NCBI RefSeq assembly: GCF_055900595.2
Contig: NZ_CM148325.1
Direction: 5' to 3' (one strand)
Length of the DNA stretch: 64,000 nt
The notes beneath the pieces are model-generated. The model did not search any database and was not told the DNA's origin. It saw only the letters and a list, made by a program, of their open reading frames with translations. Position numbers and translations under genes: made by a program. Positions 6,773-12,722 of the stretch are shown here, in pieces (the first letter of the stretch is position 1; each line of letters opens with the position of its first letter).

Positions 6773-8971
6773 ATGTCAGAATTAAAAATTGCCGTTAGTC
6801 GTTCTTGCCCGGATTGTTTTTCCACTCATCGTGCATGCGTGAATATTGACGAAAGTAATTATATTGACGTTGCCGCCATTATTTTATCAGTCAATGATGT
6901 TGAACGTGGAAAACTCGATGAAATAGACGCTACTGGCTATGGCATTCCTGTTTTTATTGCAACGGAAAATGAAGAACGTGTACCAGCAGAATATCTGCCA
7001 CGTATTACTGGTGTCTTCGAGCATTGTGAATCACGGAAAGAATTTTACGGACGTCAGTTAGAAACCGCTGCCAGCCATTATGAAACGCAGTTGCGCCCGC
7101 CCTTCTTCCGCGCACTGGTCGATTATGTCAATCAGGGCAATAGCGCTTTTGACTGCCCGGGTCATCAGGGGGGTGAGTTTTTCCGTCGCCATCCGGCAGG
7201 CAATCAGTTCGTGGAATATTTTGGTGAAATGCTCTTCCGCTCCGACTTGTGTAATGCCGACGTAGCAATGGGCGATCTACTGATTCATGAAGGTGCGCCA
7301 TGCATTGCACAGCAACATGCGGCTAAAGTGTTTAATGCCGATAAAACGTACTTTGTTTTAAACGGCACCTCCTCTTCCAACAAAGTGGTTTTAAACGCCC
7401 TGCTAACACCGGGTGATCTGGTGCTGTTTGACCGCAATAACCATAAGTCTAACCACCACGGGGCCTTGCTACAGGCTGGTGCAACACCGGTTTATCTGGA
7501 AACAGCACGTAACCCGTATGGTTTTATCGGTGGTATTGATGCGCACTGCTTCGAAGAAAGTTATCTGCGTGAACTGATTAGAGAAGTTGCACCGCAACGG
7601 GCAAAAGAGGCGCGTCCGTTCCGCCTCGCTGTGATTCAGTTAGGCACCTACGACGGTACTATTTATAACGCCCGCCAGGTGGTGGATAAAATCGGTCATC
7701 TGTGTGACTACATCCTGTTTGACTCAGCATGGGTCGGCTATGAACAGTTTATTCCGATGATGGCGGACTGTTCGCCGCTGCTACTGGAGCTTAATGAGAA
7801 CGATCCGGGTATTCTGGTTACGCAATCTGTACATAAGCAGCAGGCTGGTTTTTCTCAGACTTCACAAATTCATAAAAAAGACAGCCATATCAAAGGGCAA
7901 CAGCGTTATGTCCCGCACAAACGCATGAACAACGCCTTTATGATGCACGCCTCCACCAGCCCGTTCTATCCGCTGTTTGCCGCACTGGATATTAACGCCA
8001 AAATGCATGAAGGTGTCAGCGGTCGTAATATGTGGATGGATTGTGTGGTTAACGGTATTAATGCCCGCAAATTGATCCTCGATAACTGTCAGCACATTCG
8101 TCCGTTCGTTCCTGAACTGGTGGATGGTAAACCCTGGCAATCGTATGAAACAGCGCAAATTGCGGTTGATCTGCGCTTCTTTAAATTTGTACCCGGTGAG
8201 CACTGGCATTCTTTTGAAGGTTACGCAGAGAACCAATACTTTGTCGATCCGTGCAAACTGTTGCTGACAACTCCTGGCATTGATGCACGTAACGGCGAAT
8301 ATGAAGCATTCGGTGTACCCGCGACGATTCTTGCTAACTTCCTGCGCGAAAATGGCGTAGTGCCGGAAAAATGCGATCTTAACTCCATCCTCTTCCTGCT
8401 GACTCCGGCAGAAGATATGGCCAAACTGCAGCAACTTGTTGCCCTGCTGGTACGCTTCGAAAAACTACTGGAAGCTGATGCGCCTCTGGCGGAAGTATTG
8501 CCTTCCATCTACAAACAGCATGAAGAGCGCTACGCCGGTTATACCCTGCGTCAGTTGTGCCAGGAAATGCATGATTTGTATGCCCGTCACAACGTGAAAC
8601 AACTGCAAAAAGAGATGTTCCGTAAGGAACACTTCCCACGCGTCAGCATGAATCCACAGGAAGCCAACTATGCCTACTTACGCGGTGAAGTGGAATTGGT
8701 TCGTCTGCCGGATGCAGAAGGCCGTATCGCAGCCGAAGGTGCGCTTCCTTATCCTCCGGGTGTGCTGTGTGTTGTTCCGGGTGAAATCTGGGGTGGTGCT
8801 GTTCTGCATTACTTCAGCGCTCTGGAAGAAGGGATCAACCTGCTGCCAGGTTTTGCACCGGAGCTGCAGGGTGTCTATATCGAAGAACATGATGGTCGTA
8901 AGCAAGTTTGGTGCTATGTCATCAAGCCTCGTGATGCGCAAAGCACCCTGTTGAAAGGGGAAAAATTATGA
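6773..8971 (+). CDS. speF: Inducible ornithine decarboxylase
   Basis: ORF 6764-8971 (735 aa); PLP-dependent Orn/Lys/Arg decarboxylase family. Start at MSELKIAV (6773) preferred over 6764; the choice is uncertain. Confidence 0.93.
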   Translation: MSELKIAVSRSCPDCFSTHRACVNIDESNYIDVAAIILSVNDVERGKLDEIDATGYGIPVFIATENEERVPAEYLPRITGVFEHCESRKEFYGRQLETAASHYETQLRPPFFRALVDYVNQGNSAFDCPGHQGGEFFRRHPAGNQFVEYFGEMLFRSDLCNADVAMGDLLIHEGAPCIAQQHAAKVFNADKTYFVLNGTSSSNKVVLNALLTPGDLVLFDRNNHKSNHHGALLQAGATPVYLETARNPYGFIGGIDAHCFEESYLRELIREVAPQRAKEARPFRLAVIQLGTYDGTIYNARQVVDKIGHLCDYILFDSAWVGYEQFIPMMADCSPLLLELNENDPGILVTQSVHKQQAGFSQTSQIHKKDSHIKGQQRYVPHKRMNNAFMMHASTSPFYPLFAALDINAKMHEGVSGRNMWMDCVVNGINARKLILDNCQHIRPFVPELVDGKPWQSYETAQIAVDLRFFKFVPGEHWHSFEGYAENQYFVDPCKLLLTTPGIDARNGEYEAFGVPATILANFLRENGVVPEKCDLNSILFLLTPAEDMAKLQQLVALLVRFEKLLEADAPLAEVLPSIYKQHEERYAGYTLRQLCQEMHDLYARHNVKQLQKEMFRKEHFPRVSMNPQEANYAYLRGEVELVRLPDAEGRIAAEGALPYPPGVLCVVPGEIWGGAVLHYFSALEEGINLLPGFAPELQGVYIEEHDGRKQVWCYVIKPRDAQSTLLKGEKL

Positions 8972-10287
8972 GTCAGGCTAAATCGAACAAAATGGGCGTC
9001 GTTCAGTTAACCATACTGACGATGGTCAACATGATGGGCTCCGGCATCATCATGCTGCCGACAAAGCTTGCCGAAGTTGGGACAATCTCAATAATCTCCT
9101 GGTTGGTGACAGCCGTAGGCTCAATGGCGCTGGCATGGGCATTCGCAAAATGCGGTATGTTCAGCCGTAAATCAGGCGGTATGGGCGGTTATGCCGAGTA
9201 TGCTTTCGGTAAATCCGGTAACTTTATGGCGAACTATACCTACGGCGTCTCGCTGCTGATTGCTAACGTGGCGATTGCTATTTCGGCAGTTGGTTACGGC
9301 ACCGAACTGCTCGGCGCGAGTTTGTCACCAGTGCAGATTGGTCTGGCAACCATCGGAGTGCTGTGGATTTGTACCGTGGCTAACTTTGGTGGTGCGCGCA
9401 TTACCGGGCAAATCAGTAGCATTACCGTGTGGGGGGTCATTATTCCGGTGGTAGGCCTGTGCGTTATCGGCTGGTTCTGGTTTAGCCCGACACTTTACGT
9501 TGATTCCTGGAATCCGCATCATGCACCGTTCTTCAGTGCGGTAGGTTCTTCCATCGCCATGACGCTGTGGGCTTTTCTTGGTCTGGAGTCTGCGTGTGCG
9601 AATACTGATGTAGTGGAAAACCCGGAACGTAATGTGCCAATCGCGGTACTCGGCGGTACGTTAGGTGCGGCGGTGATTTATATCGTCTCCACCAACGTGA
9701 TTGCCGGGATTGTGCCCAATATGGAGCTGGCAAATTCAACGGCACCATTTGGTCTGGCCTTCGCGCAAATGTTCACACCGGAAGTGGGTAAAGTCATTAT
9801 GGCGCTGATGGTGATGTCCTGCTGCGGTTCACTGCTTGGCTGGCAGTTCACCATTGCCCAGGTGTTTAAATCTTCATCTGATGAAGGCTACTTCCCTAAA
9901 ATTTTCTCCCGTGTAACCAAAGTGGATGCACCGGTTCAGGGGATGTTGACCATTGTGATTATTCAGAGTGGATTGGCACTGATGACCATTAGCCCGTCAC
10001 TGAACAGCCAGTTCAACGTGCTGGTTAACCTGGCCGTGGTGACCAATATCATCCCATATATTCTGTCGATGGCGGCATTAGTCATTATTCAGAAGGTCGC
10101 CAATGTGCCACCATCAAAAGCGAAAGTAGCAAACTTTGTTGCCTTTGTTGGTGCGATGTACAGTTTCTATGCGCTGTACTCATCCGGGGAAGAAGCCATG
10201 CTGTACGGTTCCATCGTGACTTTCCTTGGTTGGACACTGTATGGTCTGGTATCACCACGCTTTGAACTGAAAAACAAACACGGTTAA
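8968..10287 (+). CDS. potE: Putrescine:ornithine antiporter
   Basis: 439-aa polytopic membrane ORF (APC family), start overlapping the speF stop (ATGA). Confidence 0.95.
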   Translation: MSQAKSNKMGVVQLTILTMVNMMGSGIIMLPTKLAEVGTISIISWLVTAVGSMALAWAFAKCGMFSRKSGGMGGYAEYAFGKSGNFMANYTYGVSLLIANVAIAISAVGYGTELLGASLSPVQIGLATIGVLWICTVANFGGARITGQISSITVWGVIIPVVGLCVIGWFWFSPTLYVDSWNPHHAPFFSAVGSSIAMTLWAFLGLESACANTDVVENPERNVPIAVLGGTLGAAVIYIVSTNVIAGIVPNMELANSTAPFGLAFAQMFTPEVGKVIMALMVMSCCGSLLGWQFTIAQVFKSSSDEGYFPKIFSRVTKVDAPVQGMLTIVIIQSGLALMTISPSLNSQFNVLVNLAVVTNIIPYILSMAALVIIQKVANVPPSKAKVANFVAFVGAMYSFYALYSSGEEAMLYGSIVTFLGWTLYGLVSPRFELKNKHG

Positions 10288-10305
10288 AAAAAGCGAAATA
10301 AATAT

Positions 10306-10330
10306 CCTCCGGCATAGCCGGAGGTTTTTC
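10306..10330 (+). terminator. Intrinsic terminator after potE
   Basis: cctccggc-ata-gccggagg hairpin followed by tttttc, about 20 nt after the potE stop. Confidence 0.7.
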
Positions 10331-11050
10331 AAATGCGCCTGTAAGGCTCTGTTACCAGCCGCGCCCTAACAGGCGCATACGATCTGACATTTGCATTCAA
10401 CTTCGTTACTTACGGCCCGTAAACGGGCTGCCCGGATATGGAATCGATAACTGCTCCCCCATTTTATCCTCTTCAAGCTGGTGCTTTATGTAGTCCTGTA
10501 TCTTCGCCGTGTTCTTACCCACCGTATCGACATAGTACCCTCGGCACCAGAACTCCCTGTTTCTGTATTTGAATTTCAAATCCCCAAACTGCTCGTAAAG
10601 CATCAGACTGCTTTTCCCTTTCAGATATCCCATAAAGCCGGATACGCTCATTTTGGGTGGGATTTCCACAAGCATATGGATATGATCTGCGCAGCACTCT
10701 GCTTCCAGAATCCGTACGCTTTTCCACTCACACAGCTTTCTCAAAATACTGCCTATCGCCCTACGCTTCTCTCCGTAAAACGCCAGTCTTCGGTATTTCG
10801 GCGCAAAAACTATGTGATATTTACAGTTCCAGCGGGTGTGCGCTAAGCTCTTTTCGTCCCCCATTGGGACCCCCTTTTGATTTCTTGTTTGACACTTGCA
10901 GTTGCCAGACCGCAAGGTGTTTTAACAAATCAAAAGGGGTTTTAATAACTGGCTCAAAGCTGAAAGCTTTCCGGAACCCCCAGCCTAGCTGGGGGTTTTC
11001 TGTGCACAAAAAAAGGGCGATTGAATGATCGCCCTTTCTGTTTGTTGACA
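10330..11050 (-). mobile_element. IS200-like insertion sequence (IS200/IS605 family); ends approximate
   Basis: Contains a Y1 transposase gene (HTRWNCKYHIVFAPKYRR motif) flanked by hairpins: cccccagc-cta-gctggggg at about 10978-10998 and a stem followed by a T-run on the minus strand at about 11012-11045. Size (about 0.7 kb) is consistent with IS200. Exact ends not determinable by eye. Confidence 0.75.
10406..10864 (-). CDS. tnpA: IS200/IS605-family Y1 (HUH) transposase TnpA
   Basis: ORF 10406-10915; start placed at MGDEKSLAHTRWNCKYHIVFAPKYRR (152 aa). Contains the HxH motif (ADHIHMLVEIPP) and a C-terminal region typical of IS200 TnpA. Confidence 0.9.
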   Translation of the reverse strand: MGDEKSLAHTRWNCKYHIVFAPKYRRLAFYGEKRRAIGSILRKLCEWKSVRILEAECCADHIHMLVEIPPKMSVSGFMGYLKGKSSLMLYEQFGDLKFKYRNREFWCRGYYVDTVGKNTAKIQDYIKHQLEEDKMGEQLSIPYPGSPFTGRK

Positions 11051-11078
11051 AAGAGTTCGTTATTTATGCCGCATCCGG

Positions 11079-11221
11079 CAGGTGTAGGATCCAAACGCGG
11101 TCGAACACAGCAACTATTTGCGTAATTATATGAGGCATTTGCGACAAAAACTGGAACAGGATCACGTCCGCCCCGCCATTTCATTACTGAAACCGGTATT
11201 GGGTATCGGTTTATGCTTTGA
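11079..11221 (+). repeat. Decayed direct duplicate of the kdpE 3' end (kdpE-remnant pseudo-sequence)
   Basis: 143 bp that align by eye with kdpE 5940-6083 (caggtgt...aaccggtattgggtatcggtttatgc...tga). The copy has TGG to TAG and a 1-nt deletion, so it is non-coding. Confidence 0.8.
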
Positions 11222-11344
11222 AAAAAGTGGCAATGTATGGATAAAGTCATTTTTTATTCAAATATAAGGAACTTAATATTTAAAAAATGTCCCATACAAT
11301 GCCTCATCATAAATGACACCGTAGCACACAAGGAGCAAGTAGCG

Positions 11345-11995
11345 ATGCGTGAAGTGAGTCAGTTAGTAAATACTGAAGATTCAGCCTGGACAATAATCCA
11401 GAATTGGTTAAAAGAAGCCACAAACCATGCCGAACTCTTACCGGTTAATAAAGATTTAGCCGAAACCGCACTTTATCAATTACAGGTTACAACAAAATCA
11501 CCGATGGGTGCGCTTGTCTATGGCTCCGGAGGTCTGCTGATTGATAACGGTTGGTTACGCATATCAGGCTCTGGTCACCCCCGGTTACCACGAGATCCAG
11601 CAAGTTGGACACAACGCCCTGAATTCGCAAGCGTGCGGGCTTTACCCATCGCCGATGATGTCGCAGGGGGAATTTTTGCTCTTAATGGTGGCGATCTTGG
11701 GGAAGATACTGGCTGCGTTTATTATTTTGCGCCAGATACGCTGAATTGGGAAAGTCTGGAGGTTGGATATTCTGAGTTTCTTCAGTGGGCATTATCCGGT
11801 GATTTAGATACCTTCTATGAAAATGTACGCTGGCCGCAATGGCAAGAAGACGTAATAAAATTATCGGCAACGGAAGCCTTCACTTTCTACCCTTTCTTAT
11901 GGGTACAAAGTGAAGAAGCAAGAACAAGAAAAGTTATTTCGCTTACTGAACTCTGGGAAATGCAGTATCAAATGAAAGAAACAATCACGCAATAA
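11345..11995 (+). CDS. ybfG: Conserved hypothetical protein (YbfG-like, DUF2625 by recollection), apparently intact
   Basis: ORF 11237-11995; start placed at ATG 11345, preceded by aaggag at 11330-11335. The ybfG assignment is positional (between potE and ybfP/pgm) and from memory, not from a domain search. Confidence 0.6.
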   Translation: MREVSQLVNTEDSAWTIIQNWLKEATNHAELLPVNKDLAETALYQLQVTTKSPMGALVYGSGGLLIDNGWLRISGSGHPRLPRDPASWTQRPEFASVRALPIADDVAGGIFALNGGDLGEDTGCVYYFAPDTLNWESLEVGYSEFLQWALSGDLDTFYENVRWPQWQEDVIKLSATEAFTFYPFLWVQSEEARTRKVISLTELWEMQYQMKETITQ

Positions 11996-12004
11996 GACAT
12001 GTTC

Positions 12005-12030
12005 AGGTCCGGGTTTCATTCCCGGACTCG
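12005..12030. terminator. Putative bidirectional terminator between convergent ybfG and ybfP
   Basis: gtccggg-tttcatt-cccggac hairpin in the 40-bp gap between the two stop codons. Confidence 0.5.
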
Positions 12031-12035
12031 CTATT

Positions 12036-12530
12036 TTAATGTGTGTTTATCGCTTTCAATTCTTGCTGGCAATTTTCTGACTGACAGCGTCGCAACTCAA
12101 TAATCCCGACATGCATCATCGAGCCAAAAAATCCGCTTTCGCTGACATAATCCTCATTAACTATCGGTCGAGTGCCGGGCTTACCCTGGCAAATCCCCAT
12201 AAAAAATGAGGTGTAGCATTGCCATTCAGGATTTAAACCGGTCTTTTCTTGTGCTGACATATCATGAAGATAAGTAAGTTCTTTTTCGTTCCCGCCTGAC
12301 AACTGCCAGCGGCGGGTATTATCAGGTAAGTTATCGCCACGGCAATTTGTCTTACACCGGGAAGGCGCAATATTTACCGCAATGCTACCCGTTAATCCTC
12401 TGGTTTTATCTTTAGGGGTCAGTAACCAGTCACCAGCTAATGATGATTGTTCAGGTTGGGCGCATGCTGTCAGCAGTAGTGTGGCGGTAATTAATGCCAC
12501 TCTGACGACCAGACTCCTTTTGGTCTTCAT
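12036..12530 (-). CDS. ybfP: Putative lipoprotein YbfP
   Basis: ORF 12036-12581; start placed at MKTKRSLVVRVALITATLLLTAC (lipobox LLTAC), 164 aa. Confidence 0.8.
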   Translation of the reverse strand: MKTKRSLVVRVALITATLLLTACAQPEQSSLAGDWLLTPKDKTRGLTGSIAVNIAPSRCKTNCRGDNLPDNTRRWQLSGGNEKELTYLHDMSAQEKTGLNPEWQCYTSFFMGICQGKPGTRPIVNEDYVSESGFFGSMMHVGIIELRRCQSENCQQELKAINTH

Positions 12531-12584
12531 TTTGAATTCCCTTGAGCTATTCAGTTTGTTGGCAAAGTACTCGTTGTTCATGCC

Positions 12585-12690
12585 GGATGCGGCGTGAACG
12601 CCTTATCCGTCCTACAAAATAGTGCAAATTCAATATATTGCACCATCCTCGTAGGCCTGATGAACGTAGCGTATCAGGCTATCATAAGTA
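12585..12690. repeat. REP/BIME palindromic elements
   Basis: gccggatgcggcgtgaacgccttatcc... and ...gtaggcctgatgaacgtagcgtatcaggc REP-type units between ybfP and pgm. Confidence 0.7.
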
Positions 12691-12691
12691 A

Positions 12692-12722
12692 AAAGGGCGA
12701 TCTTCCGACCGCCCTTTTTCTT
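12692..12722. terminator. Putative terminator downstream of pgm
   Basis: aaaagggcgatcttccgaccgccctttttc: GC stem flanked by an A-run and a T-run (bidirectional appearance). Confidence 0.6.

Follow-up and report, generated by a model that had tools for sequence, protein, structure and literature searches.

The closest described relatives of the element analysed here are IS200 of Salmonella enterica and E. coli variants of IS200 such as IS200C. These carry a single tnpA gene, encoding a protein of 152 aa with the catalytic tyrosine Y125, measure about 707-712 bp and possess neither terminal inverted repeats nor a target duplication. In IS200, nt 12-34 form a two-way left-end terminator that shields tnpA from outside transcription, and a stem-loop at nt 69-138 hides the ribosome-binding site (PMC4513863). 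Gene content, size, the absence of repeats and duplications, the palindrome at nt 12-34, the stem-loop at nt 69-138 and a match to the Rfam family STnc490 are all shared by the element described below, the likeness to Salmonella IS200 being judged from the published description and coordinates. IS1541 of Yersinia pestis has the core of the left-end hairpin, the right-end hairpin and the terminal ATATTTATT in common with it and likewise sits directly after terminator-like hairpins. It differs in its left-end leader (TGTGCCCAGAAAA, compared with TGTGCACAGAAAA in the window element), in a unit length of 710 bp as derived from tandem copies, and in host and copy number.

For IS608 of Helicobacter pylori and ISDra2 of Deinococcus radiodurans a transposition model comprises excision as a single-stranded circle and a target recognised by guide pairing (PMC6006769, PMC2806898). 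Both elements have subterminal hairpins at either end, a single orientation and a target adjoining the left end, as found here, but they carry tnpB in addition and use the tetra- and pentanucleotide targets TTAC and TTGAT, whereas the target of the window element is a T-tract behind a hairpin. Insertion after intrinsic terminators is also known for bacterial class C group II introns (PMC8643678). Like the window element, these land just past terminator stem-loops with low harm to the host. Their machinery is unrelated: they consist of a ribozyme and a reverse transcriptase, whereas the window element is moved by a Y1 HUH DNA transposase.

Identity and chromosomal setting of the element

The window, i.e. 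the whole stretch of 64,000 nucleotides that was analysed, is 100% identical to E. coli Z0117EC0005 (NZ_CP098223.1) between positions 10250 and 11250. The gene order in this region is speF, potE, a kdpE-like pseudogene remnant, a DUF2625 gene, a lipoprotein gene and pgm. The ORF list and RefSeq place potE, which encodes the putrescine-ornithine antiporter, at 8968-10287 on the plus strand. GC skew, computed with a view to the replication strand, gave values too small to indicate it.

We regard the segment at 10297-11008 with high confidence as an intact IS200-group element (IS200/IS605 family) whose transposition was probably recent; it carries tnpA alone, on the minus strand. The gene occupies 10406-10864 (459 nt, 152 aa, minus strand), and its product begins MGDEKSLAHTRWNCKYHIVFAPKYRR in the ORF list. 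It was assigned as a Y1 (HUH) transposase by Pfam, NCBIfam, structure alignment, motifs and RefSeq. In profile searches the protein matched Pfam Y1_Tnp with E = 9e-37 over model positions 2-121 of 121, and NCBIfam transpos_IS200 (NF033573) with 144 bits at a cut-off of 55. The HUH motif corresponds to H61-I62-H63 and the single catalytic tyrosine to Y125, followed four residues on by the glutamine Q129, as is typical of the IS200 group. In Salmonella IS200, the Y125F mutant serves as a catalytically dead control (PMC4513863). TnpA further aligned end to end with the solved structures 2EC2, 2F4F, 2A6M and 2XM3 (TnpA of Sulfolobus, IS608 and ISDra2); the full-length alignment with the IS608 and ISDra2 proteins includes the HUH motif and the tyrosine helix, and the HUH and Tyr/Gln residues coincide with DHIH and YI..Q of 2EC2 and 2F4F. 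RefSeq annotates the protein as WP_000502112.1 under the generic family name IS200/IS605 family transposase only, and applies the label IS200C to relatives that are about 95-96% identical to the window element in DNA. Since the protein has the HUH and tyrosine motifs and exceeds the thresholds of the family profiles, the identification made from the sequence in the original prediction stands, namely an IS200/IS605-family Y1 transposase of 152 aa on the minus strand, held in a hairpin-bearing unit of roughly 0.7 kb.

Beyond the element lie two chromosomal features whose positions had been correctly recognised. A REP core (GCCGGATGCGGC) at 11068-11079 on the minus strand is outside the element; it has five exact copies in the window and occurs in the unoccupied site of K-12 as well. 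At about 11091-11221 on the plus strand follows the kdpE-like winged-helix pseudogene remnant (ybfI-type, annotated in RefSeq), which is also chromosomal and shares about 90% DNA identity with kdpE.

Boundaries of the element and ownership of its hairpins

The ends of the element were defined by comparison with unoccupied sites in K-12 and in three closer strains, which moved the boundaries. K-12 BW25113 has no insertion at the potE site, as had been stated in the original prediction. In WB61, 2013C-4282 and EC42405 the unoccupied plus strand reads ...CACGGTTAAAAAAAGCGAAAT|AAAAAAGGGCGATTGAATGATCGCCC..., with the junction GCGAAAT|AAAAAAGGGCGATTG, while the window at the occupied site reads ...GCGAAAT AAATATCCTCCGG ... 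CTGTGCACA AAAAAAGGGCGATTG... on the same strand. From these sequences and that of K-12 it follows that the inserted DNA extends from about 10297/10300 to 11008 and not, as previously proposed, from 10330 to 11050. The net gain at the potE site is 709 bp (10300-11008), because the terminal ATT of the element coincides with an ATT already present in the unoccupied sites; owing to the T-run the end positions are uncertain by about 1 nt.

Further pairs of occupied and unoccupied sites bear on the length; in some of these comparisons the pgm terminator of the window itself stood for the unoccupied state. Exact gains of 712 bp including the terminal ATT were obtained at pgm and nagD, and a 712-bp gain with two base differences, again including ATT, at fadR. 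At ybiJ and amtB, where the length of the T-run differs among strains, the gain was 711 bp including ATT. At fdnI/yddM the best unoccupied strains have an extra 187-bp REP-containing segment. The terminus ATATTTATT was kept in 22/22 complete IS1541 copies of Y. pestis. From the ATT in the gains of five pairs and the conservation of ATATTTATT we therefore take the element to have 712 bp, at 10297-11008 on the minus strand, starting TGTGCAC and reading 5'-TGTGCACAGAAAA...GGAGGATATTTATT-3'. A 709-bp element ending ATATTT, as the WB61 site taken by itself would give, was ruled out as the general form by the 712-bp gains at pgm, nagD and fadR and by the IS1541 termini. The two ends, TGTGCAC... and ...ATATTTATT, are not inverted repeats, and a target-site duplication was absent in the six occupied/unoccupied pairs compared, both as in the IS200 group.

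The potE target reads T6-ATT-TCGC when unoccupied (T6-ACT-TTG in the K-12 type) and, when occupied, T6 followed by the element (ending ...TTTATT) and TCGC or TTG. Thus, the three bases that follow the T-run are missing, or merged with the terminal ATT of the element, in two probably independent insertions at this site. The idea that the K-12-type insertion in genome L144 arose in an allele with ATT was rejected, since a constructed unoccupied site of this kind had no perfect match among 5426 genomes; the best matches carried one mismatch. The coding sequence of potE is untouched, because the insertion starts 10-13 nt past its stop codon.

With these boundaries, the hairpins around the element change owners. 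The hairpin CCTCCGGC-TAT-GCCGGAGG at 10306-10329, whose core CCTCCGGCATAGCCGGAGG at 10306-10324 is followed by TTTTT on the plus strand, is the right-end subterminal hairpin of the element, because the unoccupied sites lack it and all IS200 and IS1541 copies have it; it moves with the element to six other loci. It had been taken for the potE terminator (10306-10330), and on the plus strand it does have the form of a canonical intrinsic terminator, 19 nt past the potE stop codon. A terminator scan detected it on both strands, with predicted folds of -15.5 and -15.9 kcal/mol.

The native potE terminator is instead the two-way intrinsic terminator at 11009-11037. Its stem, GGGCGAT/ATCGCCC, spans 11015-11034; the minus strand carries T6 at 11009-11014 and the plus strand TTTCTGTTTGTT. 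Terminator scan and predicted folds support it, and its hairpin (11012-11037) has the identical sequence in the unoccupied sites of K-12, WB61, 2013C-4282 and EC42405. The element therefore lies between the potE stop codon and the native terminator rather than just past the latter, as had been proposed. The hairpin with a minus-strand T-run that had been described at 11012-11045 as the left end of IS200 does exist at 11012-11037, but it is a chromosomal feature outside the element, and of the accompanying run of seven T only the last one (11008) belongs to the element.

The left end of the element itself carries the perfect palindrome AACCCCCAGCTAGGCTGGGGGTT at 10975-10997 (minus strand, element nt 12-34; predicted fold -18.7 kcal/mol), which matches STnc490 positions 1-23. 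It was followed by the stem-loop in the tnpA 5' UTR at 10871-10939 (minus strand, nt 69-138), with a predicted fold of -40.6 kcal/mol and z = -6.6. The Shine-Dalgarno sequence of tnpA, AAAAGGGGG at 10870-10878, lies within this hiding stem-loop. Both sets of coordinates agree exactly with those published for IS200 (PMC4513863), and Rfam STnc490 (RF01405) matched 10874-10997 with 146 bits at a gathering score of 56. Thus the IS200-specific left-end control region, comprising the terminator, the stem-loop and the art200/STnc490 region, is present, and subterminal hairpins are found at both ends of the element (10975-10997 and 10306-10324). Other weak Rfam matches, among them Ysr202, STnc250 and MicX, were far below their gathering scores and were read as generic terminator-like similarity. 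The proposal that a terminator upstream of tnpA blocks read-through into the gene holds as to the effect, but the hairpin to which the literature assigns this role is the one at 10975-10997 and not the one originally named.

As judged from the sequences, transcription of potE now probably ends at the right-end hairpin (stem plus T5) and not at the native terminator. We infer that two successive terminators, that of the host and that of the element, protect tnpA against transcription from outside, and the insertion is probably close to neutral for speF-potE.

Copies of the element and history of the potE site

The 709-bp core was found in 100% identical copies in dozens of genomes. In the twelve copies examined it was 100% identical at six other loci (ybiJ, fdnI, fadR, pgm, amtB and nagD), so that the element forms a mobile unit with multiple copies and identical ends at different loci. 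Matches to the element were obtained in 2641/5426 complete E. coli genomes, with 1 to 35 places per matching genome (median 2). In NZ_CP098223.1, the genome identical to the window, about 17 places match, which answers the suggestion that other copies be sought in the same genome. Within the 64-kb window, a search with the left-end palindrome revealed no copy other than that at the potE site.

The potE site is occupied in 11 of the 5426 genomes. Eight of them match the window at 100% across the potE-IS junction. In L144, whose flanks are of the K-12 type, the IS200C variant sits in the same position and orientation. In L143 and L145 a single IS200 copy abuts the pgm terminator with its left end, while its right end joins the nucleotide immediately behind the T-run at the potE terminator; the 1.7 kb from one terminator to the other are missing. 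Because of the configurations in L144 and in L143/L145 beside that of the window, the potE terminator has been used several times; different IS200 variants have struck it, in three or four lineages at the least. The view of the insertion as strain-specific is therefore correct as far as its rarity is concerned, but not in the strict sense, given eight genomes with an identical junction and three other lineages, in which the IS200 variant or the structure of the flanks is different.

Three other readings of the locus were weighed against an intact and recently moved IS200 copy. In one of them, the gene encodes a REP-associated tyrosine transposase (RAYT, TnpA-REP) that belongs with the adjacent REP and not to a mobile IS. 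This might be suggested by the REP core located 60 nt from the left end of the element and by the fact that RAYTs are related Y1 enzymes (PMC3333891). However, the protein scored 30 bits with REP_Tyr_transpos (NF047646; cut-off 80) compared with 144 bits with transpos_IS200 (cut-off 55), the same REP exists in the unoccupied K-12 site, and the element occurs in multiple copies whose ends are fixed. This reading is refuted by the family scores together with the unoccupied site, and we assign it practically no probability. Hardly more probable is the anatomy first proposed, in which the element spans about 10330-11050, the T7 hairpin at 11012-11045 serves as its left-end terminator and 10306-10330 is the potE terminator. 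Both hairpins do resemble intrinsic terminators, and a terminator does sit upstream of tnpA, matching the IS200 literature. Against this, K-12 and the three other unoccupied sites contain the 11012-11037 hairpin and lack the one at 10306-10324, the latter goes with the element to six loci and is kept in IS1541, and it is the palindrome of 23 nt at 10975-10997 that corresponds to the published terminator at nt 12-34. At the level of sequence comparison with unoccupied sites, this anatomy is refuted. It is also very unlikely, though somewhat less so, that we are dealing with an old and inactive remnant passed on by vertical inheritance. IS200 has been described as largely dormant (PMC4513863), and the potE site is occupied in lineages with diverged flanks. 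Yet 100% identical cores are found at six other loci and in dozens of genomes, the open reading frame and all control structures are intact, and the site is occupied in 11/5426 genomes only; the different IS200 variants in the other occupied lineages point to separate events. An intact IS200-group copy at 10297-11008 thus remains the preferred reading. It is a known element and an ordinary insertion, with its anatomy corrected here.

Insertion at the end of intrinsic terminators

At 7/7 distinct E. coli sites the left end of the element lies directly after a G+C-rich hairpin and a T-run, and in all seven tnpA is co-oriented with the abutted terminator. At the potE site the left end abuts the minus-strand T-run of the host terminator, and the right-end hairpin faces potE. 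For a cross-species set, the core of the left-end palindrome was searched in one genome per species, which yielded at least 120 loci from Oxalobacter, Vibrio, Mailhella/Desulfovibrio, Bacillota, Peptococcaceae, Brenneria, Dickeya, Edwardsiella, Pluralibacter and Yersinia pestis. In species other than E. coli the left end was taken to start 13 nt upstream of the core of the hairpin. Among the matches listed, a perfect-stem hairpin ending at most 12 nt from the left end was present in 92 of 100 unique flanks, compared with 11-21% of T-run-matched controls, and the mean folding energy was -19.2 kcal/mol for the flanks as opposed to -5 to -7 for the controls. In 84/101 flanks the left end lay 5-8 nt beyond the last G-C pair, and the spacer between stem and left end consisted of T to 84% (both among the matches listed). 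For IS1541 of Y. pestis, 26/27 flanks among the matches listed contained a terminator-like hairpin. Some copies follow the right-end hairpin of another copy, which results in tandem copies. The element is thus found in one orientation relative to its target, a hairpin with a T-rich tract abutting the left end in 7/7 E. coli sites and, among the matches listed, in 92/100 others. A hairpin frequency of 92% versus 11-21% therefore demonstrates that IS200 lands at the end of intrinsic terminators, although selection against insertions inside genes could inflate the association. Only this terminator-targeting rule is of wider interest, and at least a part of it has been published: an association with terminators has been reported at the level of the family and was read as limiting transposase expression (preprint 10.1101/2025.07.22.666184). 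A target rule at the nucleotide level or a mechanism was not stated in the literature searched, with older subscription papers on IS200 and IS1541 lying outside that search.

By analogy with IS608 and ISDra2, the Y1 HUH transposase would, as a dimer, bind the subterminal hairpins of one strand and cut both ends beside them, at sites picked through base pairing to a short guide that lies immediately 5' of either hairpin. A single-stranded circle would then be released ('peel and paste') and pasted 3' of a matching short target in single-stranded DNA. The sequence GAAAA is located just 5' of both the left-end and the right-end hairpin and is conserved across all species sampled; on the same analogy it is likely to be the guide, a candidate for pairing with T-rich cleavage and target sites.

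Tentatively, we propose that IS200-group transposases actively select intrinsic terminators and insert at the end of the T-tract, 5-8 nt past the G+C-rich stem, approximately at the point of transcript release. Two routes could lead to such a selection. The hairpin and T-tract might mimic the right end of the element, in which a hairpin is followed by ATATTTATT; the right ends of other copies indeed serve as targets. Alternatively, the non-template T-tract might be exposed as single-stranded DNA in paused termination complexes.

The competing account is survivorship only: the element would insert at any T-rich single-stranded DNA without recognition of a hairpin, and the harmless copies would persist. 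An insertion in inv is a recorded intragenic insertion of the IS200/IS1541 kind, and one inside hisD (hisD984) is on record in the literature for IS200 itself; insertions of this type are expected to be purged. Moreover, the family model reads the target only by pairing with a guide of 4-5 nt (PMC6006769). Survivorship is difficult to reconcile with the hairpin frequency in T-run-matched controls (11-21%, against 92% of the flanks among the matches listed), with the narrow spacing of 5-8 nt between stem and insertion, and with the repeated use of one and the same nucleotide at the potE terminator. The right-end hairpins of other copies, which serve as landing sites and give tandem copies, argue in the same direction. 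In Y. pestis selection against IS insertions is thought to be relaxed, and yet the pattern is kept in IS1541 (26/27 flanks among the matches listed). We consider survivorship unlikely as the whole explanation, and on its own it seems insufficient. If active selection is true, the right-end hairpin replaces the terminator that was displaced, and the insertion would therefore be nearly neutral.

For the strain, these results mean that speF-potE keeps its coding sequence while its 3' end is probably set by an IS-borne hairpin, the native terminator lying 0.7 kb further on. The mapping of terminators, small RNAs and 3' UTRs in such strains is prone to mis-assign these hairpins, as happened in the original prediction. 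For the family, a checkable rule emerges: IS200-type elements are to be found directly after a terminator hairpin and T-tract and co-oriented with it. This rule helps to fix the ends of elements that have neither inverted repeats nor target duplications, and helps to explain how an element with hardly any activity survives in so many genomes at a low cost. The repeated use of the potE terminator and the IS-bounded 1.7-kb pgm-potE deletion in two strains indicate that such copies can reshape the region.

Repeats and the STnc490 match in the IS200 element

The IS200-group element (window 10297-11008, minus strand) contains a 10 bp inverted repeat, ATGCGCCTGT...ACAGGCGCAT, at 10333-10378, past the stop codon of tnpA and before the hairpin of the right end. 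The 3' arm of this repeat is partly kept in the Yersinia and Mailhella copies. The 19-nt palindrome core of the left-end hairpin, CCCCCAGCTAGGCTGGGGG, was also found, among the matches listed, in a second repeated element of Ruminococcus and other Bacillota genome bins (records L098-L108, L045 and L042), frequently at contig ends. There the core is flanked by AATAAGCAT on the 5' side and by TATTTCTTTAACGGGCGAAGCCC on the 3' side, which are quite unlike the flanks in IS200; these Bacillota cores are not IS200 left ends.

The Rfam STnc490 model matched 10874-10997 with 146 bits on the minus strand, i.e., in the sense of tnpA, while the sole plus-strand match (19 bits) lies in a different interval, at 10975-11055. 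STnc490/art200 was described as an RNA antisense to the tnpA 5' UTR (PMC4513863). Since the 146-bit match is tnpA-sense, whereas the published RNA is antisense, the Rfam model seems to have been built on the 5' UTR strand.

Strain variation around the potE, pgm and fdnI sites

In two E. coli records, L143 (NZ_CP151026.1) and L145 (NZ_CM128590.1), which were compared with window 11008-12720, a single IS200 copy bridges the pgm terminator and the potE site: its left end adjoins the pgm terminator and its right end the sequence just past the T-run of the potE terminator. Both lack the intervening 1.7 kb, in which the window has the lipoprotein and DUF2625 genes, the kdpE-like remnant and the hairpin of the potE terminator. 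This loss could have arisen by recombination of two IS200 copies or from a deletion made by the transposase.

A different arrangement was observed in ST2747 (L008, NZ_CP007392.1; compared with window 11060-12600), in which pgm and its terminator are followed by an IS200 copy, a REP sequence and then directly by kdpE. Strain ST2747 appears to be devoid of everything between the lipoprotein gene and speF, these two included, and in the window the kdpE-like remnant and REP beside the element resemble the duplicated border of the absent segment. The window has an intact DUF2625 gene (11237-11995, a 252-aa ORF; annotated length 651 nt), whereas an internal stop makes it a pseudogene in K-12 BW25113 (L001, 1838-2488).

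The fdnI-yddM spacer itself also differs among strains: its best unoccupied versions (L138, NZ_CP025859.1) carry an additional 187-bp segment, in which REP sequences occur and the terminator-like hairpin of fdnI is repeated once more.

Landing at terminators and at other copies

At the potE site (window 10297-10302 and 11009-11014), the three bases after the T-run, which are ATT or ACT at unoccupied sites, are missing, as they are in L144, a strain with an IS200C variant at this position. The two occupied potE sites with this 3-nt discrepancy are probably independent insertions. At the pgm and nagD sites the same element was inserted and no bases were lost.

Head-to-tail tandem copies of IS1541/IS200 were detected, among the matches listed, in Yersinia pestis NCTC5923 (L110, L111, L113 and L127) and in Mailhella (L089). 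Their junction reads ...GGAGGATATTTAT|TGTGCCC... and the unit is 710 bp; therefore, the right end of one copy is the landing site of the next. IS1541 was further reported at the pheA attenuator of Yersinia, between pheL and pheA, a region that normally contains a transcription termination signal (PMC3082878). This location fits the rule that an IS200-type left end lies directly after a terminator hairpin and its T-tract.
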